Part shown: positions 5,063-50,429 of the stretch, piece after piece
Numbering within the stretch: position 1 is the first letter of the stretch
How the letters are laid out: each line of letters begins with the position of its first letter
Assembly (NCBI GenBank): GCA_964626365.1
Contig: CAZVDL010000005.1
Span: forward strand, 3,075 to 67,074
Source of the DNA: an uncultured Nitrososphaerota archaeon
GTDB taxonomy: Archaea > Thermoproteota > Methanomethylicia > Nezhaarchaeales > B40-G2
Length of the DNA: 64,000 nucleotides
Direction of reading: 5' to 3'
The notes under the pieces: generated by a model
The model's input: the letters and a program-made list of their open reading frames with translations, nothing else
What the model was told of the DNA's origin: nothing
Database searches by the model: none
Position numbers and translations under genes: made by a program

Positions 5063-7150
5063 ATGAGGGTGGTCAGGTCAGTATGCAGGATGTGTCACGG
5101 TGGCTGTGGGGCTCTCATATACGTGGAGGACGGCAGGGCGGTTAGGGTCGAGGGCGACCCCCAACATCCAGTTAGTAGGGGCTACATGTGCGCTAAGGGC
5201 TTAGCCTCCATCCAGCTAGCCTACCACCCTGATAGGCTTCGCTACCCGTTGAAGAGAGCTGGGGATAGGGGTGGAGGCAGCTGGGTTAGGGTCTCGTGGA
5301 ATGAGGCGCTGAGCGACATAGCTAAGAGGCTCTTGGAGATAAAGGAGCGCTACGGCGCTGAGGCGGTGGTCTTTGCCCACGGCACCAACAGGGAGTACCT
5401 ACACATGGTCTATAGGCTAGCCCACGCTTTCGGATCACCTAACGTGACCTCCCCAGGCTATGTCTGCTACTACCCTAGGGTAGCGGCCTCCATCCTGACC
5501 TGCGGCGGGCTACCCATAGCCGACTACGACGGCGAGCCGAAGTGCATAATGGTGTGGGGGTGCAACCCTCTCCACACAAGCCCAGACGAGTACTGCGCCG
5601 CTCAGCTATGCAGAGCGCTGGAACGCGGCCCCAAGTTAATAGTGGTCGACCCTAGACCCACGTGGCTAGCGTCTAGAGCTGACGTATGGCTTAGGATAAG
5701 GCCTGGCAGCGACGTGGCCTTAGCCCTAGGCCTCCTCAACGTCATAATCGAGGAGGGTCTCTATGATAGGGGTTTTGTTGAGCGGTGGACTGTGGGCTTC
5801 GATAAGCTGGCTAGCCACGTAAAGAAGTACACGCCTGAGAAGGTTGAGGGGTTGACTTGGGTTTCGGCTGGTTTGATTAGGGAGGCTGCTAGGCTTTATG
5901 CGTTGTCTAAGCCTGCCTGCATCCAATGGGGGGTTAAGATAGAGCAGAACGTGAACTGCACTAGCTGTATTAGGGCGCTAGTCGCGCTAATGGCTATAAC
6001 CGGGAACCTGGACGTCCCTGGAGGCAACGTCTTATGCTCGCCTCCTCCCGTAACCAGGTTCACCGAGTTCATGTTGACTAGCGCCTTGAGCGAGGAGCAG
6101 CGGCGTAAGAGGTTGGGAGGAGAACATAAGCTGTCCTCGATGGGCTCGGTCGTACCGCCTATGCACGTGGTTAAGGCCATACTTGAAGGAGACCCATACC
6201 CGGTTAAAGCCATGGTGGTGTTCGGCAGTAACCCCCTACTAACCTGGCCTAACTCCAAGCTGGTCAAGGAGGCCTTAATGAAGCTGGACTTCTTGGTGGT
6301 TGTGGACTTGTTTATGACTCCTACGGCTGAGTTGGCTGATTATGTGCTTCCTGCTGCCACCTGGCTGGAAATAGACGACGTGGCCTTCTACTTCTACAGG
6401 GCGGGCTACGTGATGGCCAGGCGTAAGGCCATAGAGGTAGACGAGTGTTGGCCAGACCACAAGATAATCATAGAGTTAGCTAAGAGGCTAGGCCTACGCG
6501 AGTGCTTCTGGGAGGACGTGGAGGAGTACTTGAACTACGTCTTAAAGCCTTCAGGCTTAACTTGGCGTGAGTTCGCTGAGCGAGGATGGCTTGAAGCTCC
6601 CAAGCGCTACCGTAAATACGAGGAGGAGGGCTTTAGGACGCTCTCAGGTAAAGTCGAGCTCTACTCTGAGACCTTAGAGAGGATGGGTTATAGCCCTCTG
6701 CCAGACTACGTGGAGCCTCCTGAGACCCCGCTAAGTAACCCTAAGCTAGCTGAGGAGTACCCCTTCATCCTAACCACCGGCCATAGAAGCCCCGCGTACT
6801 TCCATAGCGAGTACCGCCAGCTTCCCTGGCTTAGATCCATTCAACCGGACCCCATAGTCGAGCTGAGCCCTGAAGCAGCTAAGGAAATAGGGGTTGAGGA
6901 TGGGGACTGGGTGTGGATTGAGACGCCTAGGGGTAGAGTTAAACAGAGGGTTAAGGTGGTCCCTGGGATGCACCCTAAGGTGGTTAGTGCCCAGCACGGC
7001 TGGTGGTTCCCTGAGAAGCCTGGGCCTGAGCATGGCTGCTTCGAGTCCAACATCAACGTGGTGACTAGTAGCGAACCCCCCTACGATCCCTGCTTTGGGG
7101 CTGTAACCTTCAACGCCTTGCTATGCAGGGTGTATAAGGCGGAGGGGTGA
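5063..7150 (+). CDS. Molybdopterin (bis-MGD) oxidoreductase catalytic subunit of the DMSO-reductase / formate-dehydrogenase-like family. It is predicted cytoplasmic, with no Tat signal.
   Basis: The N-terminal CRMCHGGCG...C motif is a [4Fe-4S] binding site typical of the family. The 695 aa size fits. It starts 1 nt after the thi4 stop and is followed by an overlapping ferredoxin subunit. Confidence 0.85.
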   Translation: MRVVRSVCRMCHGGCGALIYVEDGRAVRVEGDPQHPVSRGYMCAKGLASIQLAYHPDRLRYPLKRAGDRGGGSWVRVSWNEALSDIAKRLLEIKERYGAEAVVFAHGTNREYLHMVYRLAHAFGSPNVTSPGYVCYYPRVAASILTCGGLPIADYDGEPKCIMVWGCNPLHTSPDEYCAAQLCRALERGPKLIVVDPRPTWLASRADVWLRIRPGSDVALALGLLNVIIEEGLYDRGFVERWTVGFDKLASHVKKYTPEKVEGLTWVSAGLIREAARLYALSKPACIQWGVKIEQNVNCTSCIRALVALMAITGNLDVPGGNVLCSPPPVTRFTEFMLTSALSEEQRRKRLGGEHKLSSMGSVVPPMHVVKAILEGDPYPVKAMVVFGSNPLLTWPNSKLVKEALMKLDFLVVVDLFMTPTAELADYVLPAATWLEIDDVAFYFYRAGYVMARRKAIEVDECWPDHKIIIELAKRLGLRECFWEDVEEYLNYVLKPSGLTWREFAERGWLEAPKRYRKYEEEGFRTLSGKVELYSETLERMGYSPLPDYVEPPETPLSNPKLAEEYPFILTTGHRSPAYFHSEYRQLPWLRSIQPDPIVELSPEAAKEIGVEDGDWVWIETPRGRVKQRVKVVPGMHPKVVSAQHGWWFPEKPGPEHGCFESNINVVTSSEPPYDPCFGAVTFNALLCRVYKAEG

Positions 7151-7641
7151 ATGTGGTTAAGCTAACCCTCCTCATTGACCCCTCCAAGTGTATAGGCTGC
7201 TACGCCTGCGAAGTCGCCTGTAAGCAGGAGCATGGGTTAAGTGGGTGGGCTGAGCCCTTCATCAAGGTGAAGGAAGTTAGGCGGCTGCATGGAACCTATG
7301 TAAGCTACGTCCCGGTGGTGTGTAGACATTGCGGGCGCCCTCCATGCATCGAAGTGTGTCCCACCGGCGCCCTTGAGAAGACGAAGGAGGGCGCGGTCCT
7401 TCTCGACGTCGAGAAGTGTATTGGCTGTGGTGCATGTATACCTGTATGTCCGTTCAAGGCCCTAGTCTTCGACCCTGAGGAGGGCGTTGTTAAGAAATGC
7501 GATCTTTGCGTTGAGAGGGTTAAGGAGGGCTTAGAGCCCAGCTGCGTAGCTCACTGCCCGTCGAGCGCGCTGGTCTTTGGGGAAACCTCCTCGCTAATCG
7601 ACGAGCTAAGATCCAAGTCTGCTGGCCAGCTGGCCAAGTAG
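7147..7641 (+). CDS. 4x[4Fe-4S] ferredoxin-type electron-transfer subunit of the molybdopterin oxidoreductase.
   Basis: Four CxxCxxCxxxCP-type motifs are present (CIGCYACEVAC, CRHCGRPPCIEVCP, CIGCGACIPVCP, CDLCV...CVAHCP). A 4-nt overlap with the upstream gene suggests translational coupling. Confidence 0.85.
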   Translation: MNVVKLTLLIDPSKCIGCYACEVACKQEHGLSGWAEPFIKVKEVRRLHGTYVSYVPVVCRHCGRPPCIEVCPTGALEKTKEGAVLLDVEKCIGCGACIPVCPFKALVFDPEEGVVKKCDLCVERVKEGLEPSCVAHCPSSALVFGETSSLIDELRSKSAGQLAK

Positions 7642-18832: not shown

Positions 18833-19672
18833 TTGCTCTCTCCGCGTTTTTTAGTAGGTGGATGGTTGAGGCGTATCGTCCTGCTAGCGCTATTGTTATG
18901 CCTGACCCTGTTCGCTGCGGTATGTGTCCTTGTAAGACAACGCGAGGCTCCCAGTTTCATCGACGCTAAGCGTGCATGTAGCTTCCTTGAATCTCAGTAC
19001 GTACCCGAGGTGGGTTTACTAAGGGCCTCGGTTGAAGCTTACCCCGAAAACATAACGATATACGTAACCTCAGATAACCTGTTAGCAGTTAAAGCCTTAG
19101 AGCTCTGCAGCTCTCCTTTATCTCGAGAGGTCAAGAAGGTATTGGCTTCCAGTTATCCGAGGCTGGCTCATGGAGATGGGCTTCATGAAGTACTCCTAGG
19201 CAGGACGATAGGGGCGTTTAGGTCTCAGAGAGAGCTGCTCTTCGGCGTATTTAATGGCTACCTAGTTAAAGCTCACGTCTTTGATGGCGCGGTTATGGCC
19301 GACTGGTACGAGTACGCTGATCTAGTGGCGTATAGGGGGCTTAATGCTACATGGTCCAGCCGCTTAAAGGAGGCAGAACTTGCATGGTCAAACCTAACCA
19401 GGATGTGGGACGGCTACGGTTTTAAGGATAAAGCCTTTGACGGCAGGTATGAGTCGTATAAGCTTGCATTGGCTTATCTTCTCGCCAAAAACCTTAAGGT
19501 TGAAGACCCTATAGCAAAGAGCCTAGAGGAGGTCATGTCCAAGCTCCAAGCGGATAATGGCGGGATCTACACCCACTATGTCGCCGTAGACGGGAAGATA
19601 GTACCGGCTGGAGACGTTAACGTGGAGACAACCTCCATCTTCATAATCGCGTGCCTATCAACGAAGCACTAA
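18833..19672 (+). CDS. Hypothetical secreted or anchored protein whose codon usage is AT-richer than its neighbours.
   Basis: An N-terminal hydrophobic anchor and no recognisable domain. Third-position A/T is enriched compared with flanking genes. Confidence 0.45.
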   Translation: MLSPRFLVGGWLRRIVLLALLLCLTLFAAVCVLVRQREAPSFIDAKRACSFLESQYVPEVGLLRASVEAYPENITIYVTSDNLLAVKALELCSSPLSREVKKVLASSYPRLAHGDGLHEVLLGRTIGAFRSQRELLFGVFNGYLVKAHVFDGAVMADWYEYADLVAYRGLNATWSSRLKEAELAWSNLTRMWDGYGFKDKAFDGRYESYKLALAYLLAKNLKVEDPIAKSLEEVMSKLQADNGGIYTHYVAVDGKIVPAGDVNVETTSIFIIACLSTKH

Positions 19673-19825: not shown

Positions 19826-20611
19826 TTATGGAAATTCAACCCTGTCCACGTTTGCCCCCCTCGCCTTGGCCTGTTCTAAGAGCCAGTTTAATGCGCCCTC
19901 TACCATAGCTTTAGCCTCGTTTAAGTTGGCGACTCGACAGGCTACGTGTAGTTGTATAACTGATAACCCTTCCTCGAGCCTCGGATGGGACTTTATGTAT
20001 ACCTTAGGGTATCGCCGCATGGCCTCCTCTATGTAGGGGGCTAAGGTGGCCTCATAGATCCCTGTGATCGTGGCCTCAGCTTGATAGAAGGCCTCCTTTA
20101 CCCGCTCCCTTAGCAGAGGCTCCACGTGCACCTCAAACATGGCCTTCATCTCGGCTGGCACGCCTGGTAACACGGTGATTAGCGTGGAGCCCAGCTTAAC
20201 CATGGCTCCAGGGGCGGCGCCCACAGGGTTGTAGAGTGGCTTGGCTCCACGTGGGAGGTAGGCCATCTTTTTAACTTGGGGCGCCTCGACGTGCCTGCCC
20301 ACCCTCTCCTCCAGCATTCTAAGCGCCTCTTGGTTAAGCTCAGTCTCCACGCCTAGCGCCCTAGCCACCCCCTCCATGGTCATGTCGTCGGGGGTTGGGC
20401 CTAAGCCGCCGGTCGTTATCACCAGCTCGGCTCCACGTGAAGAGGCCTCCCTGAGCGACGATGAGATTTCATCTAGGTTGTCGCCAACCACCGTGATCCT
20501 CTTTACCACTCCTCCAAGCCTAGTTACGCGGTCAGCCAGCCAGGAGGCGTTGGTGTTCACCGTCCTACCTATGAGCAGCTCGTTGCCTATAGAGACAAGC
20601 TCGACGATCAA
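19826..20611 (-). CDS. CinA-like protein with an N-terminal molybdopterin-binding (MoCF biosynthesis) domain.
   Basis: IVELVSIGNELLIGRTVNTNASWLADRVTRLGG ... ITTGGLGPTPDDMT is the MogA/MoaB/CinA N-domain signature (GGLGPT, DD). Confidence 0.7.
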   Translation of the reverse strand: MIVELVSIGNELLIGRTVNTNASWLADRVTRLGGVVKRITVVGDNLDEISSSLREASSRGAELVITTGGLGPTPDDMTMEGVARALGVETELNQEALRMLEERVGRHVEAPQVKKMAYLPRGAKPLYNPVGAAPGAMVKLGSTLITVLPGVPAEMKAMFEVHVEPLLRERVKEAFYQAEATITGIYEATLAPYIEEAMRRYPKVYIKSHPRLEEGLSVIQLHVACRVANLNEAKAMVEGALNWLLEQAKARGANVDRVEFP

Positions 20612-20624
20612 GCTTACCGCCCCC

Positions 20625-21737
20625 CTAGAGCATAACTTCAGCTAGGTCCTCAGGTCTAATGAACCTGCTCTCCTCCACTTCAAGGGCCCTATCCACCGCC
20701 TTTAGGATCTCCTCCTTCTCGTCTGGGAGCTTGTAGCCCTCGTGGTCCTGGCTGAACACGTGCACTAGACCCATCCTCGTTTTATACGCTGGGTTACAGA
20801 AATGGTCGAAGCTGATGCGGCTGTCTACGTCGAGCTTCTCGACGAGAAGCCTTATTTCCTTAAGGTAGCCGTGGGGGGTTAGTAGCTTGAAGCGCCCCTG
20901 GACGAAGTCGTCGTAGAGCGGGGTTCCTTTACGTGGAACTAGGCTTCGGACCCTTATGTAGTGGGGGTTGATCTCGTTTAACACCTTGGCGGTGTTTAAG
21001 GCGTGCTCCCTCCACCTATCAGCTCCGCCTAGCCCAGGCATAACGTACTCGGACAGCTCAAACCCAGCCTCTATGGCCTTCCTCCCAGCCTCCACGTGTT
21101 CCTGGCTCGTAACCCCCTTGTTAACGTAGGCCAACACCTCGTCATCTCCGCTTTCAAGCCCCACGTGTAGCCTAGTTAAGCCGGAGGCCCTTAGCTCCTT
21201 CAGCTCCTCGAGGCTCTTCCTATATAGGGTCTTAGCTCTAGCGTAGGAGGTCACCCTCTCGATAGTAGGGAACTTAGCTCTCAGGTACCTTATTATTTCA
21301 CATAGCCTATCCGTCTTCATTATGAGGCTATCGGCGTCCTGTATAAACACGGTCCTACAGCCTGACCTAGCCCAGTTAAACACCAAGCTGAACCATGGGC
21401 TATAGGCCAGGGCAGGCTCGATGGCTATGAGGGTTAGGGCGAGCCTATCATTGACCTCGCCCTTAAAGCCCAACTCCTTAGATAACATCCTAAGCTCGTT
21501 CAACATAAGCTCCACGGAGTCTATATCGGCCTTGACCTCGTCCACAAACCTGATCTGGAAGGGCTTCCTATCGTAGGGCAGCCCGTAGCAGAACTTACAC
21601 TTGCTCCACGGGCAGTTCCTAGTAGCCCTAATCAACAGGGAGTGGCTGCCCCCCTCACTTGGAGGCCTTATGGGGCCTACCTCAAACTTAAGCGTAGCTA
21701 GCAGTTGAAGGGACGCCTTAACAGCCTCGCTTAACAA
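20625..21737 (-). CDS. Radical SAM protein with a non-canonical CX4CX2C cluster motif (Elp3-N-terminal / TIGR01212-like).
   Basis: NCPWSKCKFC sits at the expected position of the radical SAM Cys triad. The downstream region shows TIM-barrel-like radical SAM core features. There is no acetyltransferase domain. Confidence 0.6.
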   Translation of the reverse strand: MLSEAVKASLQLLATLKFEVGPIRPPSEGGSHSLLIRATRNCPWSKCKFCYGLPYDRKPFQIRFVDEVKADIDSVELMLNELRMLSKELGFKGEVNDRLALTLIAIEPALAYSPWFSLVFNWARSGCRTVFIQDADSLIMKTDRLCEIIRYLRAKFPTIERVTSYARAKTLYRKSLEELKELRASGLTRLHVGLESGDDEVLAYVNKGVTSQEHVEAGRKAIEAGFELSEYVMPGLGGADRWREHALNTAKVLNEINPHYIRVRSLVPRKGTPLYDDFVQGRFKLLTPHGYLKEIRLLVEKLDVDSRISFDHFCNPAYKTRMGLVHVFSQDHEGYKLPDEKEEILKAVDRALEVEESRFIRPEDLAEVML

Positions 21738-21820
21738 CCCAAGTCACCTTAACTGGAGGTCCGCTTAGAACCTGGCGGCTAGGTATTTAAAGCATGGCGT
21801 GGCCGCCTTGCCACTTAGGC

Positions 21821-22537
21821 CTATGAACAGCTGGCGTCGCCCTCCACCGCCCTCGACCTGCTCCAAAACGAAGCTAACATCTCGGCCACCTCGTCGTCGC
21901 TTAAGTCCCGCCACTCCACGTAGGCGTCAGCCACCGCATAAACAGGCCCTCCTCTCACGTTTAAGGCCACCAATAGGTCGACTTCAGGTAACAGGAGCTC
22001 CACAGCGGAGATGGACGAAGTAGGGGCTGCGATCACTACCCTGGCGGCCTCTTTATCCTTAACCGCTCTCACCGCGGTGAGCATGGTGAAGCCTGAGGCC
22101 AGCCCATCATCAATCAACACGACCTCCCTGCCCTTAATCTGAGGCATAGGCCTGCCTCCTCTAAGCCTAGCCATCCTAGCCTCCACGCTGCGCCTAGCCT
22201 CCTCCACCTTAGCCTTGACAACCTTGCCCGGTAGCCCTAAGGCCTCGATAGCTCCCTGGTCCAGTATGACTCTTCCATCCCAAGCCACAGCTCCAAAGCC
22301 AGCCTCGGTGGTCCAGGGGTATAGCACCTTCCTAACTATGGCTAAATCAAGCTCCAGGCCTAGTTTCTCCGCCACCTTTAAGCCTATGGGTACCCCTCCG
22401 GCAGGTATAGCCAATACTAGCGAGCTACTTGAAACCAGCCTCTCTAAGGCTTCAGCTAGCTTCAGCCCAGCTTCAACCCTATCCTTAAACACGTACAACT
22501 TCTCTCTCAGCGTAGGGTCCTCCACTAGTTTGCCCAT
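21821..22537 (-). CDS. Type-I phosphoribosyltransferase family protein.
   Basis: VVLIDDGLASGFTM is the canonical PRPP-binding motif. Confidence 0.7.
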   Translation of the reverse strand: MGKLVEDPTLREKLYVFKDRVEAGLKLAEALERLVSSSSLVLAIPAGGVPIGLKVAEKLGLELDLAIVRKVLYPWTTEAGFGAVAWDGRVILDQGAIEALGLPGKVVKAKVEEARRSVEARMARLRGGRPMPQIKGREVVLIDDGLASGFTMLTAVRAVKDKEAARVVIAAPTSSISAVELLLPEVDLLVALNVRGGPVYAVADAYVEWRDLSDDEVAEMLASFWSRSRAVEGDASCS

Positions 22538-22591
22538 CCTACATATTTTAGGGTGTAGCTGGAACTTAAAGGCTTGTACGTGGACCCAGCT

Positions 22592-23392
22592 TTACACTTG
22601 ATCGAAGGAGCCAGGCCGATAGCCCTCTAAGTCGAGGGCTACAAACCTATAACCTAGCTTTTTAAGCTCAGAAGCCACCTTTAAGGCCACCTTAGGCCTA
22701 GCTAAAATCTCCACGAGCCCTTGGTCGACTTCGATCCTGGCCAAGTCCCCGTGGTCCCTAACCCTCACGTGGCCACGCGCTCCCACCACCTCGACGACCA
22801 CTCTTTCGGCCTCAGCTACTTTCCTAAGCGCCTCCAAAGTCAACGTCCTCCCGTAAGGGAAGCGTGTAGCTAGACACGCGGATGAAGGCCTATAGGCTGA
22901 GGGTAGCCCCCACCGCATAGCAAGTCCTCTTACCTCTTTTCTGCCCAGCCCGGCCTCAATGAGTGGGCTGGCTATGCCCAGCTCCTTTAAGGCCTTGAGG
23001 CCCGGCCTATGCTCGGAGAAGTCGTCGACGTTGGTCCCATCAGCTACGTACTTAAGCCCAAGTTCCTCAGCTAGCTTCAAGGCCAAGGTGAACCTTAAGC
23101 GTTTACACGCATAACAGCGGTCACGCTGGTTGCCAGCTACGCTCGGGAGCTCAAGCTCGTTTAGGTCTAAGACCACGTGCTTAACCCCTATATGCTCAGC
23201 TACCCGCCTAGCCTCCTCGACTTCCCAAGGAGGGTGTAACGGCGAGTTAAAGGTGACAGCTGCACAGCGCCCCTTTAAGGCCTTGAAGGCTGCCGCGGCC
23301 ACGACGGAGCTGTCAACGCCCCCTGAGAGGGCTACGAGGAGGGAGCCCTTAGACTCGATGACTCTTAGTAGGCGCTCCTCAGCCTCCTTCAA
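22592..23392 (-). CDS. LarE-like / TIGR00268 PP-loop ATP pyrophosphatase, a putative ATP-dependent sulfur transferase. The start is probably TTG at 23392, overlapping the thiI stop.
   Basis: The PP-loop SGGVDSS and a conserved downstream Cys in ACLATRFPYG resemble the LarE catalytic-Cys region. The ORF-track N-terminal extension overlaps thiI and is likely not translated. Confidence 0.65.
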   Translation of the reverse strand: MKEAEERLLRVIESKGSLLVALSGGVDSSVVAAAAFKALKGRCAAVTFNSPLHPPWEVEEARRVAEHIGVKHVVLDLNELELPSVAGNQRDRCYACKRLRFTLALKLAEELGLKYVADGTNVDDFSEHRPGLKALKELGIASPLIEAGLGRKEVRGLAMRWGLPSAYRPSSACLATRFPYGRTLTLEALRKVAEAERVVVEVVGARGHVRVRDHGDLARIEVDQGLVEILARPKVALKVASELKKLGYRFVALDLEGYRPGSFDQV

Positions 23393-24590
23393 CCACGAGC
23401 TCCTCAAGCCCCTCAACCTCCATGGACACCAGCCCCCCAGCGTCCACCTTGGCCTCGGCCTCCTCAACCTCCCCAAGGTCCACTCTGGTCGCTGCCCTTT
23501 TAGGCGAGGCCTTACACCCCTCCTCGGGCCTCGAGGAGATCTCGTAGGTCCCTATGCGCTGAGCAAGCCTCTCTACCTCGGCCTTATCCATGCCTAAGAG
23601 GGGCCTAAACACCGGGCACCCTTTAACCGCCGAGTCGATGACGTAGAGGTTGCTCAACGTCTGGCTGGCCTGCTCCCCTAAAATGTCCCCCGTGACTACG
23701 CCTTTAGCCCTCCTAAGCGAAGCCAGCCTACAAGCCACCCCTAACATCACCCTCTTACATAGCACGCAGGTCAACCTCTCAGGGGCGGCCTCCTTAATCC
23801 TCCTCAACGCCTCGCCGTGCCTAGCCACGTAGAACCTAAGCCTATTGCCCGGCATCCAACCAGCCAGCCTCTTAGCCAAGTCGAGCGCCTTAGCCCTCGT
23901 CTCGGGACCCGCAAAATCCTCAAGGTCGAAGTGTAGCAACGCAGGTATGCATCCTCTCCTCATGGACATCCAGGCGGCCACGGGAGAGTCTATCCCCCCG
24001 CTTATCAGGCACACTACTCTCCCCTGGCTGCCTGTCGGTAGGCCTCCTGGCCCTTCAACCTCATCCACGTACACGTAGGCGTCCCCCTCCCTGACTTCGA
24101 CGCCCACAATGATGTCAGGCCTATCCAGGTCCACCTTCACCCCTTTACCCTTAAGGGACCTTAGTATGGCCGAGCCTACGGCCTTGACCACGTCGGGGCT
24201 ACGGTAAGGGTGCTCGCCCACCCTCCTACATTTAACAGCGAAGCGTGTACCCTCTTTGAAGGTGGAGAGGGCCACCTTAACCCCAAGGTCCACGATGTCT
24301 TCAAGCTTAGAGCTTGCCTTAACGGCCGGCGAAACTGAGGAGACGCCGAAGACCTTGGCAGCCTCGTTAACCGCTGCATCAGGGTCCTCGACAGGGACAT
24401 AGATCCTGCCGAAGACGTAAGTGGGCTCGTGGCTAAACGCCCCAGCCCTCTTAAGCCTCTTAACGAGGTCCCTTAAGACTCTCCTCTCGTACCTAACCCT
24501 AACCCTGCTACTCTTAACCCCTATCTCCCCACTAAACCTGATGATTAAGTATACGGGCGCTCCAAGGCGCTTAGTCCATGTATACGACAC
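23379..24590 (-). CDS. thiI: tRNA 4-thiouridine synthase ThiI (THUMP plus PP-loop domains, no rhodanese domain).
   Basis: An N-terminal THUMP-like region and the PP-loop SGGIDSPVAAW. The 403 aa size fits archaeal ThiI. Confidence 0.85.
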   Translation of the reverse strand: MSYTWTKRLGAPVYLIIRFSGEIGVKSSRVRVRYERRVLRDLVKRLKRAGAFSHEPTYVFGRIYVPVEDPDAAVNEAAKVFGVSSVSPAVKASSKLEDIVDLGVKVALSTFKEGTRFAVKCRRVGEHPYRSPDVVKAVGSAILRSLKGKGVKVDLDRPDIIVGVEVREGDAYVYVDEVEGPGGLPTGSQGRVVCLISGGIDSPVAAWMSMRRGCIPALLHFDLEDFAGPETRAKALDLAKRLAGWMPGNRLRFYVARHGEALRRIKEAAPERLTCVLCKRVMLGVACRLASLRRAKGVVTGDILGEQASQTLSNLYVIDSAVKGCPVFRPLLGMDKAEVERLAQRIGTYEISSRPEEGCKASPKRAATRVDLGEVEEAEAKVDAGGLVSMEVEGLEELVVEGG

Positions 24591-24619
24591 AGCGATCAGG
24601 CTTCAAGGATTTGAGCCTC

Positions 24620-25582
24620 CTAATATTCTTTGGTCAGGGCCTTCCTCACAGCTCCCTCGACGCTCCTCTTAAACGCTTCCACCCCCTCGTAGCTGCCCGT
24701 AGCCCTATAAATCAACCTGCAGAAGGCGCAGACATCGGTTGAGGTCGGCATATCACACACTGAACACTTTTTAACCTCCCCCTCTACGTGCGTGCTTAGC
24801 TTCTCCCTAAGCCTCCTGAGAAACGACAGCTTAAAGCCGGGCCTCTCGGCCTCTAGGGTGTTTAGGAACTCCTTAGCCTTGAACTCAAGCCCCTCCCTGT
24901 TAACGTAGGGACACTCCTCGTGGTGGAAGGGCAGCCCGCTAGTCAACGCGTACACTAGGGCTTCGCGCTCGCTCACCTCGAGGAGCGGCCTAAGCCTACC
25001 CACTAGGCCGTCCTTAGTCTCGCTGTGACCTACAAGCTTAGCTAGCTCCCCTTCTCCCCCCACTAGGAAGGCCTTAACCGCGTAGGCAGCGATATCGTCT
25101 AAGTTATGCCCTGTGGCTAGCCTCGAAGCGCCGGCCAGGTTAGCCGCCAAGTTCAATGTGTAGCGCTTAACGAGACCGCACACGGAGCACACAGGCCTCT
25201 TAGCCAGCTTAGCGGCCTTGTCTACACTTAACCCGAGCGCCTGTTCAAGGCCCACTAGGATTAAGGGGCGCTCAAGCTTTTCAGCCAGCGCTTCAGCGGC
25301 GCGGCAGCACTCCTCAGAGTACCCTTGAATCCCCAGGTTTAAGTGCACCAAGAGGACCCTTGTCGCCAGCTCGTTCTCTAACAGCTTCAATAAGCTAGCC
25401 GCTGAGGCGCTATCCTTACCTCCTGAGACCGCAACTAATACTAGCGAGCTTCTTGGAACCGCGTCTCTGACTACGCTGGACACCTTCCTTGCCAGGTAGC
25501 TTTCTAAGTGGTCCCTACATAGGGCCAGCTTAGCGTACCTAAGGTATATGACCGCCCTCGACCCACATCGGCTACACTTCAC
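24620..25582 (-). CDS. ttuA: TtuA/NcsA-family tRNA 2-thiolation PP-loop ATPase.
   Basis: An N-terminal zinc finger (CSRCGSRAVIY...C), the PP-loop SGGKDS, and C-terminal CSVCDMPTSTDVCAFC (Zn/Fe-S cysteines). The GTG start overlaps the upstream stop (GTGA). Confidence 0.8.
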   Translation of the reverse strand: MKCSRCGSRAVIYLRYAKLALCRDHLESYLARKVSSVVRDAVPRSSLVLVAVSGGKDSASAASLLKLLENELATRVLLVHLNLGIQGYSEECCRAAEALAEKLERPLILVGLEQALGLSVDKAAKLAKRPVCSVCGLVKRYTLNLAANLAGASRLATGHNLDDIAAYAVKAFLVGGEGELAKLVGHSETKDGLVGRLRPLLEVSEREALVYALTSGLPFHHEECPYVNREGLEFKAKEFLNTLEAERPGFKLSFLRRLREKLSTHVEGEVKKCSVCDMPTSTDVCAFCRLIYRATGSYEGVEAFKRSVEGAVRKALTKEY

Positions 25583-25794
25583 CTCAAGCCACCCGAGATA
25601 GCCTCGTAAACCTCAACCTCATCGCCGTCCATTAAGGCTTCGTCCTCAGTTAACACGACCCCCTCCCGGACAACCACGGCTGACTCCTCACTATACCCTA
25701 AAAGCCTAAGAAGGTCCCTTACCTTAGCCTTGCCCTTCAGCTCCACGTCCCTAACGGCGCCTCCAGGCCTAACCCTCACTCTAAGCCTAATCAA
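25579..25794 (-). CDS. ThiS/MoaD/TtuB-type ubiquitin-like sulfur-carrier protein (SAMP) with a C-terminal Gly-Gly followed by two extra residues (..SGGLR).
   Basis: The 71 aa size and a beta-grasp-like sequence ending EVYEAISGGLR*. It sits immediately upstream of ttuA with an overlap. Confidence 0.6.
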   Translation of the reverse strand: MIRLRVRVRPGGAVRDVELKGKAKVRDLLRLLGYSEESAVVVREGVVLTEDEALMDGDEVEVYEAISGGLR

Positions 25795-25891
25795 TTTGGG
25801 GCCTCTTAGCTGACGCGTAAAGGGCTGCTTAAACGTTTACGCTCAAAGATAACCTTTTTCTTCTTCCACAGCTCTCACCCACCGAGCTAAG

Positions 25892-27283
25892 ATGTCGGTG
25901 AAGGCTGTGGAAAGCCTGTTTGAGGCCCTCTTCGCCTTAATCGACCTTAGGCAGCTGTTCAGGGAGACGAAGCCTAGCTACAGGTTTAACGAGGACCAGA
26001 GGGCTAAGGCGTTAAACAGCATTGAGAGAGCTAGACGCTGTCTAGACCTGCTTGAGGAGTTCGTCAAGGAGCCAAGGCCCTCGGACACCGAGTTTTCCAT
26101 GTACCTAGCTGATAAAGTGGAGGTTAGGGCTAGGGAGGAGCTCTTCGTCAACATCGACCCCATTCAGCCAGGAGGTAGGTTAACGGCTGAGGCTATGAAG
26201 GCGCTGATAGCCTACGGCGACGGCTACTCCACCTGCGACTGGTGCATGAAGCCCTTCAGGCTTGACACCATTAAGCGCCCCCCTCTGGCCGAGTTCCACG
26301 CCGAGCTAGCCGAGTTCCTAGGGATGGACGAGGCCAGGCTTATGCCTGGGGCTAGGAGAGCGTTCCAAGCGGTCACCTCAACTCTCCTTGAGAGAGGGGA
26401 CGTAGCGCTGGTCTCCTCGCTAGCTCATTACACCGAGGTGTTAGCAGTTGAGGAGGCTGGAGGAGTTGTCAAGGAGGTCCCGGTTAACGAGAAGAACGTG
26501 TTGACTGGCGAGGCCGTCGAGGCCAAGATAGAGGAAGTGAAGAGGGAGCTCGGTAAGCCACCTAAGCTGGTCATAGTCGACCACTTCGACTACGTGTACG
26601 GGAACGAGCACGACGTTAAAGGGGTCGTGGAGGCTGCCCACCGCTACGACGTCCCAGTGCTATGTAATGGCGCCTACTCAGTGGGCATCATGCCGGTGAA
26701 CGGGAGGGAGCTAGGCGTCGATTTCCTCGCGGGTTCAGGTCATAAGAGCTTCGCCTCCCCAGCACCCTCAGGGATCTTAGCTACCACCGAGGAGTGGGCT
26801 AAGAAGGTGTTTAGGCGCTCGAGTACGGTCTGCGACGTAACCGGCAGGCGCTTCGACAATAAGGAGGTGGAGCTGCTAGGGTGCACGTTGATGGGAGCGG
26901 TGGCCATAGCTATGATGCTGAGCTTCCCCCACGTCAAGGAGAGGGTTAAGAGGTGGGGGGAGGAGGTGGAGAGATCTAACTTCTTCGTCAAGGAGTTCAT
27001 GAAGATAGAGGGGTGTAGGATCCTAAGCGAGCTCCCAAGGAAGCACACCTTAACCTACGTAGACACCACCGAGAGCTTCGACAAAGTGGCCAGGACGCAT
27101 AGGCGTAGAGGGTACTTCCTCTTCGACGAGCTGGTTAAGCGGAGGGTTATAGGGGTGTTCCCTGGCTCCACGAGGAGGTGGAAGCTCAACGTGTACGGCT
27201 TAACGTGGGATCAGGTTAGGCACGTAGCCTGGGCCTTCAAGGACATCGCCAGGAGCTACGGGCTTAAGGTTGAGGAGTCCTAG
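25892..27283 (+). CDS. PLP-dependent SepCysS/SepSecS-like (COG1103) enzyme, a possible sulfur-mobilising transferase.
   Basis: A GSGHKSFASPAPSGIL PLP-lysine motif resembling the archaeal Sep-tRNA:Cys-tRNA synthase family. No SepRS gene lies in the window. It is transcribed divergently from the thiolation operon. Confidence 0.55.
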   Translation: MSVKAVESLFEALFALIDLRQLFRETKPSYRFNEDQRAKALNSIERARRCLDLLEEFVKEPRPSDTEFSMYLADKVEVRAREELFVNIDPIQPGGRLTAEAMKALIAYGDGYSTCDWCMKPFRLDTIKRPPLAEFHAELAEFLGMDEARLMPGARRAFQAVTSTLLERGDVALVSSLAHYTEVLAVEEAGGVVKEVPVNEKNVLTGEAVEAKIEEVKRELGKPPKLVIVDHFDYVYGNEHDVKGVVEAAHRYDVPVLCNGAYSVGIMPVNGRELGVDFLAGSGHKSFASPAPSGILATTEEWAKKVFRRSSTVCDVTGRRFDNKEVELLGCTLMGAVAIAMMLSFPHVKERVKRWGEEVERSNFFVKEFMKIEGCRILSELPRKHTLTYVDTTESFDKVARTHRRRGYFLFDELVKRRVIGVFPGSTRRWKLNVYGLTWDQVRHVAWAFKDIARSYGLKVEES

Positions 27284-27353: not shown

Positions 27354-27944
27354 GTGAATAGCTTGAAGGTGGGGGTCATAGGGAGAAAGCTGATGATGAA
27401 GGGGGAGTTCGTAGAGCTAGTACTCAAGGGTATAAAGAAGACCACGATCAGGCTTGGCCTCGTTAAGCCGAAGCATAAGGTCGTCATCCTGCACGGAGGA
27501 GGCAAGGACGTAGCTAAGGTGAGGATAACTAAGGTCGAACACAAGAGGGTTAAGGACCTTACTGAGGCTGACGCTCGGCGAGATGGTTTCAACAGCCTCG
27601 AGGACCTACTGAAGGCGCTAAAGAGGGTTTACGGTGCCATAGACCCCAACGAACCGGTCACCATAATAGGCTTCGAGGTGCTAAATCTTCTAGACGAGAA
27701 GCCCCACGACATCATATCGCCGGCCGAGGTGGCCAGGGCTACCCTAGATAGCGGCATAGAGCTCTCCAGCGAGGAGCGGAGGGTGTTGAGCGAGGTAGCT
27801 AGGAAGGGGAGCATAAGGAAGGCCGCGGTGGCCCTATACGGCGACGTGAGCAGGAGGTGGCTTGTTAGGAGGGTGTTGAGGAAGGCCTTAAAGGCCTTAG
27901 CGGAGAGAGAGTTAAAGGGCGAAGTTAAGGGCGGAGAAAGCTAG
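27354..27944 (+). CDS. ASCH-domain (PUA-like RNA-binding) protein with a basic C-terminal extension.
   Basis: An N-terminal ASCH-like beta-barrel signature (GIKKTTIR, YG) and a C-terminal K/R-rich helical tail. Confidence 0.55.
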   Translation: MNSLKVGVIGRKLMMKGEFVELVLKGIKKTTIRLGLVKPKHKVVILHGGGKDVAKVRITKVEHKRVKDLTEADARRDGFNSLEDLLKALKRVYGAIDPNEPVTIIGFEVLNLLDEKPHDIISPAEVARATLDSGIELSSEERRVLSEVARKGSIRKAAVALYGDVSRRWLVRRVLRKALKALAERELKGEVKGGES

Positions 27945-27956
27945 GAGGGCCTGGCC

Positions 27957-28241
27957 TTGAAGGTGAGGGCCCACGTCTTCATAAGTGGAAGGGTTCAGGG
28001 AGTTTTCTTTAGGGCTTGGACTGAGGACGAAGCGGTCAAGAGAGGGTTGACTGGATGGGTGAGGAACCTAGCTGACGGCAGGGTGGAGGCCGTGTTTGAG
28101 GGTGATAAGGAGGCCGTAGAGGAGATGGTTAAGCTATGTTGGAAGGGCCCCCCTGGAGCTAGGGTCACCAACGTCGAGGTTAAATGGGAGCCCTACACGG
28201 GCGAGTTTACAGACTTCAGGATAATCTACGGGAGATGGTAA
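27957..28241 (+). CDS. acyP: Acylphosphatase.
   Basis: VQGVFFR and GWVRNLADGRVE acylphosphatase signatures. The protein is 94 aa. Confidence 0.85.
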   Translation: MKVRAHVFISGRVQGVFFRAWTEDEAVKRGLTGWVRNLADGRVEAVFEGDKEAVEEMVKLCWKGPPGARVTNVEVKWEPYTGEFTDFRIIYGRW

Positions 28242-29284: not shown

Positions 29285-29953
29285 ATGTATCCTGCCCAGT
29301 GGGCTAGGGAGCGACTACTAACCTCGAGGATACTGAGAAGACTCTCAGAACACATCCCCGGCTTCAAGCACCACGAGCCCGAGGGCCGCATGCTGGCTAA
29401 CGTGGCAGTCAACGACTTCAGGAACTACGTTAAATACAAGCCTCCCTCGCCCAACGTGGACCAAGGCGAGTATGCAGACTGCTGGGCTGAGAGGTGGCTT
29501 GACAAGTGGAGAGAGCGTGTCAAGCTGGTGTTTAGGCCCCAGGACGGTCACGTCTTCGCTAAGCACGAGAAGCTGATTAGGGACACAAGCTTCCTATGGA
29601 GCAGGTTCCCCCACTTAAACGAGGCCTTAGAGCTCGTAGTTGACGCGTTAATCGACGTCGGCGAGATCTGCTTCACCAACCTCCTAGCTGAGAGCACCCT
29701 GCGAGGGGAGCTATTGAGATACAAGCAGCTATGTAGGTCTGACGAGGAGGCGCTGCGGAGGATCCAGGTGGACCCGTTAAAGGTGGTGAAGGAAGCCATG
29801 TACAGGGCTAAGTCGCTGCGCCACGTCAAAGGCCCTCTCGTGTGGCTGAGGGTTGATGAGCACATATGGCGCAGCTCAACGGGCAAGATCGTGGAGGAGC
29901 CTCCAGGGAACGGCGAGGAAGAATGGGAGCAGGCGGTCTTCGGGATCTTTTAG
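29285..29953 (+). CDS. Hypothetical protein.
   Basis: A clean 222 aa ORF with typical codon usage and no recognisable motif. Confidence 0.4.
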   Translation: MYPAQWARERLLTSRILRRLSEHIPGFKHHEPEGRMLANVAVNDFRNYVKYKPPSPNVDQGEYADCWAERWLDKWRERVKLVFRPQDGHVFAKHEKLIRDTSFLWSRFPHLNEALELVVDALIDVGEICFTNLLAESTLRGELLRYKQLCRSDEEALRRIQVDPLKVVKEAMYRAKSLRHVKGPLVWLRVDEHIWRSSTGKIVEEPPGNGEEEWEQAVFGIF

Positions 29954-31802: not shown

Positions 31803-32570
31803 CTAGCGACCCCCACACGTTGGGCAACGGGGCGACCTCTCGACGAGCAGGTGGTCAAAGGTCATGGTGAGCCCATTGAACACGAGCAGCTTTCCAATTA
31901 AGGCTTCGCCTACGCCCGTCAACAGCTTTATAGTCTCCACCACTTGGAGGGCTGCCATGACGGCTGGAGTGGCCCCAAAGACTGGGATGGGCCTAGGCTC
32001 CTTAGGATCCACGGGCACCAGGCAGCGTAGGCATGGACCCTTGCCGGGCACGATTGTCATGAGCCTGCCCTCGAAGCCCCGCACGCCAGCGTAGATGAAA
32101 GGTTTGCCCAGCCTCACACAGGCCTCGTTAACCATGAACCTGGTCCTGAAGTTGTCTAAGCCGTCGACAACCACGTCGGCCTCCTTAACTAGGCCTTGAA
32201 CGTTGTCCTCATCGACCCTAGCGGCTACGGCCTCGACCTTGACCTCGGGGTTTAGCTGGCGGAGCTTCTCAGCGGCTGAATCCACCTTAAGCCTGCCGAG
32301 GTCCTTGGTCCAATGGAGCACCTGCCTATTGAGATTGCTTAGCTCAACCGCCTCGCTGTCAACTATGATAAGCTTACCAACTCCAGCGGCAGCTAGATAC
32401 ATGGACGACGCGCTGCCTAAGCCCCCTACGCCCACTACGAGGACCGTGGCGTTCTTCAGTTTAGCCTGGCCTTCAACGCCGAAGCCGGGTATACGTATCT
32501 GCCTATCATACCTCTCGAGCTCGTGGACGGTGAACTGTAAGCCTCGGCTTGTCTCCGAGCGAATGTTCAT
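31803..32570 (-). CDS. moeB: MoeB/ThiF/UbaA-type E1-like adenylyltransferase.
   Basis: ELERYDRQIRIPGFGVEGQAKLKNATVLVVGVGGLGS (Rossmann GxGxxG) and C-terminal CLRC...CPTCG zinc-binding cysteines. Confidence 0.85.
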   Translation of the reverse strand: MNIRSETSRGLQFTVHELERYDRQIRIPGFGVEGQAKLKNATVLVVGVGGLGSASSMYLAAAGVGKLIIVDSEAVELSNLNRQVLHWTKDLGRLKVDSAAEKLRQLNPEVKVEAVAARVDEDNVQGLVKEADVVVDGLDNFRTRFMVNEACVRLGKPFIYAGVRGFEGRLMTIVPGKGPCLRCLVPVDPKEPRPIPVFGATPAVMAALQVVETIKLLTGVGEALIGKLLVFNGLTMTFDHLLVERSPRCPTCGGR

Positions 32571-32937: not shown

Positions 32938-34998
32938 TTGGGGCTCAGGTTGAGGATCATTAAGACAGCCTGCGAGCTCTGCGCTTGGAGCTGCGGCATG
33001 GAGGTTTACGTGGAGAGCGGCAGAGTGGTTAAGGTCAAGGGAATGAAGGAACACCCTCTCAATAGGGGTCGGCTTTGCCCTAAAGCTCCAGCCATAGTCG
33101 ACTTAATGTACCACGGTGAGAGAGTCTTAACCCCCATGGTAAGGGAGGGGGCTAAGTGGAGGAAGGTGGACTGGGACTACGCGTTGGAGCTCTTAGTGGA
33201 GAACCTTAAGGAGGTGAGGGAGGAGGACCCTCGCTCCTTCGCCATGATAATAGGGATGCCCATTCTACTTGGCGGCTCCTCCACGGTAGGCTTAATAAGG
33301 CGCTTCATGGACGTCTACGGCTCCCCTAACTGCTTCTCCCCTGAAAGCATGTGCTATAGGCACCAGATCATAGGTTACATTCTAACGCTGGGCAAGTTCC
33401 CGGTCCCGGAAGTCGAAAACTCCAACTGCATAGTGGTGTGGGGCCATAACCCCCACGAATCTAAGCCCCCCTTAGCTTGGAGGATCGAGGAAGCTAGGAG
33501 GAGGGGGGCTAAACTCATAGTCATAGATCCCCGTAGGACCAAGGTAGCTGAGATGGCTGACATACACGCCCCGATTAGGCCTGGAAGCGACATATACCTG
33601 GCCGTGGGGATGATGAAGGTCATAATCGAGGAGGGTCTCTATGATAGGGGTTTTGTTGAGCGGTGGACTGTGGGCTTTGATAAGTTGAAGGAGCATCTAT
33701 CCAAGTACAGCTTGTCCTACATAGCTGAGAGGACGTGGCTCGACGAGGAGCTCATAGCTAAGATGGCCAGGGTCTTCGCCACGGTCAAGCCTGCCTGCAT
33801 AGTTCAAGGCGTAAACACCTTGGATCAGGTGCTCGTAGGTGTACAGAACGCTAGGAGCATAGCTATGCTCCATGCGCTTACAGGCAACGTTGACGTTAAG
33901 GGCGGCCTCGTAAGGGCCTCGAGGAGCCACATAGCCTCTCTTCGCCTACCGCACCTGCTAAGGGATGAGCCCCTGGGCATTAAGGAGCACCCTCTCTTCT
34001 ATCAAGTGTGGGAGACCCATCTAGGCGAGGGGCAGGCAATGTACCTCTACGACGCCATCTTAGAGGGGAGGCCCTACCAGGTGAAGTCACTCTTCATAGC
34101 CGGCTCAAATCCCCTTCTCACCTGGCCCGAAGCGTCTAAACTGGCTGAAGCCTTAGGGAAGGTCAAGTTCCTAGCCGTGATGGACCTCTTTATGACCGAC
34201 ACCGCTAAGCATGCCCACCTCCTCTTGCCCGCGGCTACCTTCCTAGAGAGGTATGAGCTCTGCGACTATTACAGCGTGATCTTCGGCATACCCTACATGA
34301 TGCTGAGGAAGAAATGCGTAGAGCCTATAGGGGGGTCTAAGAGCGACGTGGAGCTCTGGCTCGAGGTAGCTAGGAGGATGGGCTACACCGAGCACTTCCC
34401 TTGGAGGAGCGTCGAGGAGGTCTTAGACTACGTCTTGAAGCCCACGGGCTACACCTTTAAGGATCTCGAGGAGGTGTACCCTTCAGGGGTCTGGGTAGGC
34501 AAGGTGAACTACGGCGAATACCTCAGTAAGGGGTTTAGGACGCCCTCAGGTAAAGTCGAGCTCTACTCTGAGACCTTAGCTAGGCAAGGCTACGACCCCC
34601 TACCTACGCCGAGGGAGCCCTACGAGTCGCCCTTCAACGAGGATTCCAAGGAGTACCCCCTCATACTGACCACAGGCTCTAGGTTAATCTACTACACGCA
34701 TTCACAGCTTAGAAACGTGGAGAGGCTTAGGAAGCAGTGCCCTGAGCCCTACGTTGAAATGAACCCTGACACCGCGCGCAGGTATGGTTTAAGGGACGGG
34801 GGCGTGGTCGTGATTAAAACTAGGAGGGGTAGCATAAAGGTGAAGGTGAGGACGACCCCCACTATACTGCCCGGTGTCATAAACATGTCTCATGGGTGGA
34901 ACGAAGCCAACGTAAACCTGCTAACCTCAAGTAGGCCAGCAGACCCCGTCTCCGGATGTCCTGAACTTAAAGCTCTATTAGCTAGGGTATCACGATAA
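32938..34998 (+). CDS. Molybdopterin oxidoreductase catalytic subunit, a paralog of the gene at 5063-7150.
   Basis: An N-terminal CELCAWSCG...C [4Fe-4S] motif. It shares blocks with the first copy (VIIEEGLYDRGFVERWTVGFDKL; SGKVELYSETL). There is no adjacent ferredoxin subunit. Confidence 0.85.
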   Translation: MGLRLRIIKTACELCAWSCGMEVYVESGRVVKVKGMKEHPLNRGRLCPKAPAIVDLMYHGERVLTPMVREGAKWRKVDWDYALELLVENLKEVREEDPRSFAMIIGMPILLGGSSTVGLIRRFMDVYGSPNCFSPESMCYRHQIIGYILTLGKFPVPEVENSNCIVVWGHNPHESKPPLAWRIEEARRRGAKLIVIDPRRTKVAEMADIHAPIRPGSDIYLAVGMMKVIIEEGLYDRGFVERWTVGFDKLKEHLSKYSLSYIAERTWLDEELIAKMARVFATVKPACIVQGVNTLDQVLVGVQNARSIAMLHALTGNVDVKGGLVRASRSHIASLRLPHLLRDEPLGIKEHPLFYQVWETHLGEGQAMYLYDAILEGRPYQVKSLFIAGSNPLLTWPEASKLAEALGKVKFLAVMDLFMTDTAKHAHLLLPAATFLERYELCDYYSVIFGIPYMMLRKKCVEPIGGSKSDVELWLEVARRMGYTEHFPWRSVEEVLDYVLKPTGYTFKDLEEVYPSGVWVGKVNYGEYLSKGFRTPSGKVELYSETLARQGYDPLPTPREPYESPFNEDSKEYPLILTTGSRLIYYTHSQLRNVERLRKQCPEPYVEMNPDTARRYGLRDGGVVVIKTRRGSIKVKVRTTPTILPGVINMSHGWNEANVNLLTSSRPADPVSGCPELKALLARVSR

Positions 34999-49656: not shown

Positions 49657-49670
49657 GACTCTTCAACCCA

Positions 49671-49689
49671 CTGCTGGCTGACTGAGCAG
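49671..49689. promoter_or_regulatory. An inverted repeat (CTGCT-N9-AGCAG) in the divergent promoter region between the DtxR-like gene and feoA/feoB, a candidate metalloregulator operator.
   Basis: An imperfect palindrome ctgctggctgactgagcag next to an AT-rich TATA-like segment (ttcaataattagctttaaata). Confidence 0.3.
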
Positions 49690-49786
49690 TTAACCTTTTC
49701 GTCGCCTTTCTGTGCATAGTTCAATAATTAGCTTTAAATAGGATGACCTCCTCCTCGGCGCTAGAAGTTAGGGGTGCCTAACTAGC

Positions 49787-50419: not shown

Positions 50420-50429
50420 AGGGCCTGCT

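Follow-up and report, generated by a model that had tools for sequence, protein, structure and literature searches.

Does a row of seven tightly packed genes, three of which encode PP-loop ATPases next to a sulfur carrier, represent one sulfur pathway, or several functions that happen to lie side by side? The question is raised by a 64,000-nucleotide stretch of DNA from an uncultured Nitrososphaerota archaeon of the Nezhaarchaeales (contig CAZVDL010000005.1), the whole of which is called the window here, and in particular by the seven minus-strand genes listed as open reading frames (ORFs) within 19826-25794 and the divergent plus-strand gene at 25892-27283. Our analysis indicates that the seven-gene run is probably a lineage-specific mosaic and not a single pathway, in which plausibly only the tRNA-thiolation genes work together and the remainder are unrelated neighbours.

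Gene content and packing of the run

All eight genes were found where a preliminary description of this DNA had placed them, and most of the families had been named correctly in it. Family assignment was based on Pfam and NCBIfam profile scores against curated cutoffs, with the following results:

19826-20611, minus strand: stand-alone CinA N-terminal (CinA-N)/MoCF protein (COG1058); PF00994 135 bits, NF002291 288 against a cutoff of 293 (just under)
20625-21737, minus strand: orphan radical SAM protein (rSAM) with a CX4CX2C motif; PF04055 54.8 bits, its sole Pfam match
21821-22537, minus strand: type I phosphoribosyltransferase (PRTase)-fold protein of the TT1426 or "predicted phosphoribosyltransferase" family; PF00156 (Pribosyltran) 45 bits
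22592-23416, minus strand: LarE (274-residue call; the ORF is open to 23476); TIGR00268 269.4 against a cutoff of 150
23379-24590, minus strand: ThiI/TtuI with ThiI_fer, THUMP and ThiI domains; TIGR00342 296 against a cutoff of 264.5
24620-25582, minus strand: TtuA/NcsA family protein with TtuA_LIM_N and ATP_bind_3 (PP-loop) domains
25579-25794, minus strand: ThiS/TtuB/SAMP2-type ubiquitin-fold carrier of 71 residues; SAMP2 31.6 (cutoff 27), ThiS 29.0 (cutoff 22.5)
25892-27283, plus strand: SepCysS, divergent and 97 nucleotides (nt) from ttuB; TIGR02539 403 against a cutoff of 365

Read in the order from cinA to ttuB, the junctions of the run measure 13, 83 and 54 nt, an overlap, 29 nt and -4 nt; the 13-nt gap lies between the radical SAM gene and cinA, the 29-nt gap between ttuA and thiI, and the 4-nt overlap between ttuB and ttuA, and the 3' end of thiI overlaps larE by about 38 nt when the 274-residue database call of LarE is used. 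Gaps of 0-55 nt or overlaps had been described previously, which is right for most of the junctions but not for the one of 83 nt. The window is 94% coding and its same-strand gaps have a median of 12 nt, with 92% of them at or below 90 nt, and in an archaeal genome of such coding density, close packing of genes on one strand is no evidence of an operon. The gaps of 83 and 54 nt are well over this median and near the top of the distribution, in which 8% of same-strand gaps exceed 90 nt. The run is the longest among the 38 same-strand runs of the window; with the strand-switch rate of 0.5 as observed, the probability of a same-strand run of at least seven among 75 genes is 0.44. The content of the run, in which three PP-loop sulfur insertase genes are consecutive, is by contrast non-random: such a triplet together with a carrier is expected less than 1e-3 times per genome under assumed numbers of 8-15 such genes.

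The two large gaps both contain AT-rich boxes. A TATA-box-like sequence, CTTTAAATA, occupies 21784-21792 on the minus strand, 47 nt upstream of the radical SAM start and within the 83-nt gap that separates this gene from the PRTase gene, and it may be regarded as a candidate internal promoter. This 9-mer occurs only twice in the 64 kb, and the second copy is intergenic, correctly oriented and 47-55 nt upstream of a feoA-like gene. An AT-only box, TAAAATAT, lies at 22543-22550 on the minus strand in the 54-nt gap between LarE and PRTase, 6 nt upstream of the start of the 238-residue form of PRTase and about 18 nt upstream of an alternative 234-residue start; it is a candidate promoter for a leaderless transcript. 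AT-only 8-mers are intergenic in 22 of 34 cases, in comparison to the approximately 6% of the window that is intergenic. Large gaps with AT boxes coincide exactly with insertion sites in related genomes, and we therefore infer three transcription units, namely ttuB-ttuA-thiI(-larE), the PRTase gene alone, and rSAM-cinA. The first of these, with its overlaps of 4 and about 38 nt and its 29-nt gap, has the look of sulfur insertases of related mechanism that are transcribed together; the second would provide the TT1426-family PRTase, and the third the orphan radical SAM protein with the CinA-N pyrophosphatase-type protein.

The motif CTTTAAR was also considered as a weak TATA proxy and was dropped as uninformative, being over-represented inside genes. 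As an observation in its own right, CTTTAAG has 61 occurrences in the window against about 16 expected, mostly intragenic and on both strands; the excess could be due to codon or dipeptide bias, or to site avoidance or selection. An iron-uptake locus is present at 49249-52388, with an iron-dependent repressor (49249-49656, minus strand), a divergent repressor-FeoA fusion (49787-50419) and FeoB (50430-52388).

Linkage of the genes within and beyond the clade

The block recurs in a clade of about five closely related Nezhaarchaeales-type genomes, consisting of the window and the loci L005/L173, L006, L167/L169 and L168. Gene order is retained across the clade, but the run is interrupted repeatedly. 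An opposite-strand riboflavin-kinase (RFK)/HAD gene sits between LarE and PRTase in L167 and L169; two opposite-strand PurP genes separate PRTase from the radical SAM gene in L168; and a CopZ-like gene was found between TtuA and ThiI in L005. Between SepCysS and TtuB, L168 carries an MFS gene, and L006 a 2.1-kb insertion with three opposite-strand ORFs. A fused LplA+LplB-like lipoate-protein-ligase homologue, below every NCBIfam cutoff, is located between PRTase and the radical SAM gene in L005 (8800-9933) and L173 (4468-5601). The insertion sites in the relatives thus include both of the large gaps (LarE/PRTase and PRTase/radical SAM) in which the AT-rich boxes are found. LarE is not in the block in L006 and L168, both of which retain ThiI, and L169 has no TtuA or TtuB upstream of ThiI. 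As a separate observation, a LarE homologue in L172 has a split LplA/LplB pair at a distance of 2 kb.

The unrelated flanks of the block are equally collinear, with Pelota, PHP, a 222-residue protein, HAD, acylphosphatase and ASCH on one side and acyl-CoA dehydrogenase, M24, amidohydrolase and M48 on the other. Since the flanks are just as conserved in order, the synteny of the block is therefore explained by the general collinearity of close relatives and not by selection. What had earlier been called a fixed juxtaposition is an arrangement limited to about five close genomes, with insertions, loss of LarE and equally collinear flanks.

To see how far the linkage extends, the neighbours of three of the genes were also surveyed beyond the clade. 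For the radical SAM gene, 80 loci from species-representative genomes were collected, and block partners were present only at the two closest loci, L005 (79% identity) and L006 (74%); the 74 other loci, including one in Nezhaarchaeota at 55% identity, had no block gene. For LarE, 80 metagenome loci at 39-52% identity plus 2 contigs were collected, and ThiI, TtuA, TtuB, PRTase, CinA and SepCysS were found in none of these; LarE is without block partners in another Nezhaarchaeota genome and in a relative at 59% identity. For PRTase, four contexts outside the clade (52-55% identity) had nothing in common with the block or with one another. The search for conserved synteny of the eight genes, which had been put forward in the preliminary description as its first check, thus showed the radical SAM, LarE and PRTase genes each without block partners beyond the clade. 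The same description had named independent distribution of the genes in related genomes as evidence that would refute it, and the one-pathway interpretation mostly fails because the linkage is absent outside the clade. The proposed single sulfur relay or new thio-nucleotide product is not supported, the linkage being lost outside the clade and broken within it.

The PRTase, radical SAM and CinA-N proteins

The sole PDB relative of the PRTase is T. thermophilus TT1426 (1WD5), which it matches over its full length with 93 bits and with which it shares the phosphoribosyl pyrophosphate (PRPP)-loop motif VVLIDDGLASGFT. The family has at least 4018 homologues; the function of TT1426 is likewise unassigned, and no functional paper on the TT1426 family was found.

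The radical SAM protein belongs to a large and distinct family of its own. Residues C42, C47 and C50 of the CX4CX2C motif are invariant in 65 homologues, the N-terminal sequence FExGPIRPPSEGGSxSLLxRxTRNCPWxxCxFCYG is invariant as well, and an insertion of about 60 residues follows the cluster motif. The best NCBIfam match scored about 40 bits against cutoffs above 180. An AlphaFold2 (AF2) model of the 370-residue protein (pLDDT 92.5) showed no extra domain, and a Foldseek search with this model returned generic radical SAM cores only, with the best PDB TM-score at about 0.5; the structural matches of its TIM-barrel core were MgmA, AprD4, Elp3, PylB and HydE (TM about 0.45-0.5). The family comprises more than 6800 word-index matches and 335 clusters at 50% identity with E<=1e-30, is common to Bathyarchaeia, Methanomethylicia, Syntrophoarchaeum, Dehalococcoidia and Desulfobacterota, and retains 50-60% identity between archaea, Dehalococcoidia and Desulfobacterota. 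The protein in the window is 100% identical to one on contig QMSK01000006.1 of GCA_003650875.1. When all ORFs within 6.5 kb of the 80 radical SAM loci were clustered, no common neighbour was found; the commonest, by sequence inspection acetyl-CoA synthetase-like and Ffh/SRP54-like genes, were present at 11-12 of the 80 loci each, were confined to a subset of the loci and offered no lead to a function.

The protein had been described previously as Elp3-like. This is correct in that it shares the CX4CX2C motif with Elp3 and class-B-like radical SAM cores and that Elp3 radical SAM domains are among its best sequence and fold matches, but it is not Elp3 itself because the GNAT domain is absent; the Elp3 model TIGR01211 gave 36 bits against a cutoff of 350, the KAT and B12 domains are lacking, and the TM-scores stay at about 0.45-0.5. 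The idea of a LipS1/LipS2-type lipoyl synthase was tested because L005/L173 have the lipoate-ligase-like gene just upstream of the radical SAM gene. It was rejected, as there was no BioB- or LipS-level match and only a single genome has the ligase next to the radical SAM gene; in one Bathyarchaeota genome the ligase lies 4.5 kb off on the other strand. The radical SAM protein is a distinct orphan family without an NCBIfam model, a conserved neighbour or a close solved structure.

The CinA-N protein matched Ta0487 (133 bits) and T. thermophilus CinA in the PDB and is, by sequence, a member of the dinucleotide pyrophosphatase-type family. In each member of the clade its gene adjoins the radical SAM gene across a short gap, and the order PRTase...radical SAM-CinA is found in all five clade genomes. 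All three families are plausible handlers of nucleotides, and it could thus be imagined that they form a clade-specific module independent of sulfur chemistry, for instance one that tailors a nucleotide- or NAD-derived metabolite. We consider this unlikely, as the PurP pair in L168 and the lipoate-ligase-like gene in L005/L173 split PRTase from the radical SAM gene, a CinA or PRTase neighbour occurs at 0 of the 74 radical SAM loci outside the clade, and acyl-CoA dehydrogenase and M24 alongside are conserved equally well. In the mosaic reading, which is preferred here, the three genes are simply neighbours of the thiolation genes.

Another radical SAM gene of the window, of the AmmeMemoRadiSam system, is located at 57304-58350 (minus strand; TIGR04337 307 against a cutoff of 220) and adjoins a serine-recombinase/resolvase gene at 56350-57069 (plus strand). 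The longest of the listed same-strand gaps, 715 nt (about 54571-55285), is near these genes at 56350-58350 and contains AT-rich boxes at 54817-54843.

The sulfur insertases and their sulfur supply

ThiI and TtuA/TtuB had been taken for tRNA thiolases, and domains, scores and motifs make them recognisable as such. In PDB scores the TtuA-like protein is nearer to TtuA, with 197 bits for the P. horikoshii and 171 for the T. thermophilus enzyme, than to M. maripaludis NcsA with 118, and in the alignment to P. horikoshii TtuA (PH0300) the Zn fingers, the SGGKDS PP-loop, CsvC and eeCP all match. It is probably a [4Fe-4S] PP-loop tRNA 2-thiouridine synthetase with U54 as its target. In comparison to the TtuA-TtuB(-TtuC) system for 2-thioribothymidine at position 54 (s2T54) of T. 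thermophilus and P. horikoshii, the two Zn fingers, SGGKDS, the CXXC+C cysteines, the carrier gene directly upstream of ttuA and an E1-like ThiF/MoeB protein nearby are shared, whereas the score is below the TtuA equivalog cutoff and the carrier has 2-4 residues after its Gly-Gly. Neither TtuD nor a cysteine desulfurase was seen in the 64-kb window.

The ThiI protein has the motifs SGGIDS, "LTCVLCK" (CXXC) and "EEGCK", and no rhodanese domain. Archaeal ThiI/TtuI of this CXXC+C type requires a [4Fe-4S] cluster and works with sulfide, as reported for M. maripaludis and P. furiosus (PMC9825150). With its ThiI_fer, THUMP and PP-loop regions, the CXXC+C cysteines and the missing rhodanese domain, the protein shows no notable difference from these enzymes, and by its motifs it is a rhodanese-less tRNA U8 4-sulfurtransferase of the CXXC+C (Fe-S) class, which would bind the cluster and use sulfide.

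The C-terminus of the TtuB-like carrier, read from the DNA at 25579-25590, is ...SGG-LR, so that the Gly-Gly is conserved and yet not terminal. Its orthologues end in ...SGGLGEV (L005, about 4125-4145) and ...SGGAS (L006, about 7020-7040). A non-terminal diglycine is known from QbsE (GG-CF) and CxnE, both of which JAMM proteases trim (PMC5925218); none of the ORFs scanned in the window was seen to encode a JAMM protein. The residues after the Gly-Gly imply either that the C-terminus is processed before the carrier is adenylated or that the carrier would not be thiocarboxylated. In the former case the short variable tail would imply a processing step in archaeal tRNA thiolation. The carrier ORF of L168 looks frameshifted or degenerate, with one frame entering ttuA without a stop.

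For the LarE protein, S31-G-G-x-D35-S36, C101, C104 and C181 are invariant in 15 homologues, as are R218 and R220 (R-V-R), which align with the vRvR of L. plantarum LarE (5UDQ). The similarity to L. plantarum LarE is 118 bits, and a Thr takes the position of its Ser180. L. plantarum LarE is of the sacrificial type, while the CXXC-C motif of T. maritima LarE binds a [4Fe-4S] cluster that makes the enzyme catalytic, and this motif is present in most LarE homologues (PMC9283937). The protein had been called sacrificial and without a defined substrate. Both points need correction: the CXXC-C motif places it in the [4Fe-4S] catalytic type, and the family has a defined function, its homologues adjoining larB and larC. 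Among the LarE loci surveyed, larC (20 loci) and larB (18 loci), both above NCBIfam cutoffs, were the recurrent neighbours, and the nearest homologue outside the clade, L088 at 52% identity, sits with larB and larC. Based on these features, the protein appears to be an ordinary catalytic [4Fe-4S]-type LarE, the sulfur insertase of the nickel-pincer nucleotide cofactor. It resembles T. maritima LarE and the larB-larC-larE system in its SGGXDS, CXXC-C and phosphate-binding R-x-R; the difference is that larE here follows thiI, with no larB or larC within 64 kb.

This difference allows for another explanation, in which LarE has been recruited in this clade from nickel-pincer synthesis and, coupled translationally to ThiI, thiolates some other carboxylate or nucleotide, in a tRNA or a small molecule, with a sulfur supply shared with ThiI. 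The thiI-larE overlap, the adjacency of the two genes in the window, L005/L173 and L167/L169 and the lack of any larB or larC within 64 kb are in its favour. We regard it as quite unlikely nevertheless: the TIGR00268 score is far over the equivalog cutoff, the protein retains both the phosphate-binding R-x-R and the S/T of L. plantarum LarE, the closest outside homologue is accompanied by larB and larC, and lar genes are often dispersed, with larB or larC adjacent in only 13 of the 38 well-flanked LarE loci; furthermore, LarE has been lost from two clade genomes that retain ThiI. The thiI-larE translational coupling is one residual point worth specialist attention.

The preliminary description had left open the possibility that the PP-loop and Cys motifs on which it relied are not conserved in homologues; the alignments of the radical SAM protein (65 homologues), LarE (15), TtuA and ThiI showed that they are. 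A common mechanism can be proposed for TtuA, ThiI and LarE as ATP-dependent PP-loop sulfur insertases, each with a CXXC...C triad which, as in characterised relatives, would hold a [4Fe-4S] cluster in which one iron is free. Each insertase would adenylate an oxygen or a carboxylate of its target, and sulfide on the free iron would then displace AMP. TtuA with the adjoining carrier would form 2-thiouridine in tRNA, most likely at position 54, ThiI would form 4-thiouridine at position 8 (s4U8), and LarE would convert pyridinium-3,5-biscarboxylate mononucleotide to the bis-thiocarboxylate for the nickel-pincer cofactor. The sulfur source may be free sulfide and/or the thiocarboxylate of the carrier, made by an E1-like enzyme encoded 6 kb away. 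An E1 activating enzyme is needed for a thiocarboxylate carrier relay, as in TtuA/TtuB/TtuC (PMC8584467), and a candidate, on which the preliminary description had been silent, is encoded in the window next to a second carrier:

31803-32570, minus strand: ThiF/MoeB/UbaA-type E1-like adenylyltransferase of 255 residues; Pfam ThiF 259.7 bits
32567-32851, minus strand: second ubiquitin-fold carrier, MoaD/SAMP1-like, of 94 residues, ending in ...SLGGG; ThiS 40.4 (cutoff 22.5)

The E1-like protein scored 290 for MoeB, 238 for UbaA and 230 for ThiF, all under the equivalog cutoffs, and the second carrier scored 44.1 for moaD_arch (cutoff 49.5) and 33.9 for SAMP1. The two genes overlap by 4 nt, and there is a further overlap between the E1 gene and the Pelota gene. 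The E1 and carrier genes share the strand of ttuB, 6 kb upstream of it, and a molybdopterin oxidoreductase gene at 32938-34998 is divergent from them. The loci of the relatives end before the E1 region, and in L168 another gene precedes Pelota.

The divergent gene had been described as encoding a SepCysS-like pyridoxal phosphate (PLP) enzyme and as a candidate sulfur donor for the carrier thiocarboxylate. The family assignment was confirmed and can be sharpened to SepCysS proper, as the score is above the cutoff and all catalytic residues are present. The protein gave 297 bits (E 2e-87) to A. fulgidus SepCysS, and in the alignment to 2E7I the motifs GDGYStCDwC, GSGHKS and LLGCT are found, with the three catalytic Cys and the PLP Lys conserved. 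In score, catalytic Cys and PLP Lys it resembles the enzyme of the SepRS-SepCysS systems of A. fulgidus and M. jannaschii, and by these features it is a bona fide SepCysS. An orthologue-grade SepCysS is thus a consumer of sulfur on Sep-tRNA(Cys) and not a desulfurase-type donor, and the proposed role as donor for the carrier is not retained; it would be another sulfide-using enzyme acting on tRNA. Unlike the known systems, the window contains no SepRS, and a tRNA scan found none, hence no linked tRNA-Cys; an Rfam scan of the window likewise found nothing. SepRS and SepCysS, including N-terminally fused SepCysS, have been described in related uncultured "Crenarchaeota"/Verstraetearchaeota (Mukai et al. 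2017, PMC5424206). The protein shares with such fused SepCysSN forms an N-terminal extension, here of about 80 residues, but the extension differs in having no match to solved structures: examined as a SepCysE-like domain, it gave no significant PDB sequence match, SepCysE-containing entries included. In every relative whose locus extends that far, SepCysS is followed by an ASCH-domain protein and an acylphosphatase, which in the window are on the plus strand at 27354-28241 with gaps of 70 nt and 12 nt; the ASCH-domain protein has 196 residues and a C-terminal extension without a family match.

With these results, the explanation with which the question started can be weighed, in which all seven genes form one operon and a single relay runs from the SepCysS-like donor through the carrier thiocarboxylate to the three PP-loop enzymes, with the PRTase and the radical SAM protein building a new thio-nucleotide. 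It agrees with the co-directional and close packing of the genes, with the non-random company of three PP-loop enzymes and a carrier, and with an order kept in about five related genomes. It is very improbable all the same, as the linkage of the radical SAM, LarE and PRTase genes vanishes beyond the clade, opposite-strand genes split the run inside the clade where LarE is dispensable, the unrelated flanks are equally conserved, SepCysS is of orthologue grade with motifs specific for Sep-tRNA, the relatives of LarE are found in lar operons, and promoter-like boxes lie inside the run. Hardly to be expected, too, is a scheme for the Nezhaarchaeales in which SepCysS, TtuA, ThiI and LarE share one supply from a TtuB-like carrier trimmed after the Gly-Gly and thiocarboxylated by the nearby E1, and thiI-coupled LarE, PRTase and the CinA-type pyrophosphatase make a thio-pyridinium or other thio-nucleotide without LarB. 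The scheme, if true, would also identify the sulfur donor of SepCysS in vivo, which has long been sought.

Several points weigh against the mosaic reading. Inspection of the internal gaps by eye showed no oligo-T terminator, and read-through of the whole run is thus possible. The PRTase contexts beyond the clade are only four. larB and larC were searched for and were not found in the 64-kb window or in the loci of the relatives, and the thiI-larE overlap together with the adjacency in three of the five clade genomes may mean a closer functional tie than co-regulation. The TtuA-like protein falls under the equivalog cutoffs (NF049949 204 against 450, NcsA 127 against 500), and the GG-LR tail puts the competence of the carrier for thiocarboxylation in question. 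In general, the block as found is largely ordinary, its small oddities being the tail of the TtuB-like carrier after the Gly-Gly and the widespread orphan radical SAM family, and it adds one archaeal example of clustered Fe-S/PP-loop sulfur insertases beside SepCysS, from an uncultured thermophile lineage.

Some other genes of the window were recorded in passing. ORFs of 279, 222, 408 and 366 residues (18833-19672, 29285-29953 and 45205-47512, all on the plus strand) had no Pfam or NCBIfam match; the relatives share the 222-residue one. The region 711-2119 encodes an HdrB-like CCG-domain protein and a ferredoxin. Thi4, a sulfide-dependent ADP-thiazole synthase, is encoded at 4277-5062 on the plus strand (TIGR00292 297 against a cutoff of 148); the genes after it encode a molybdopterin oxidoreductase (5063-7150) and a 4Fe-4S ferredoxin subunit (7147-7641).

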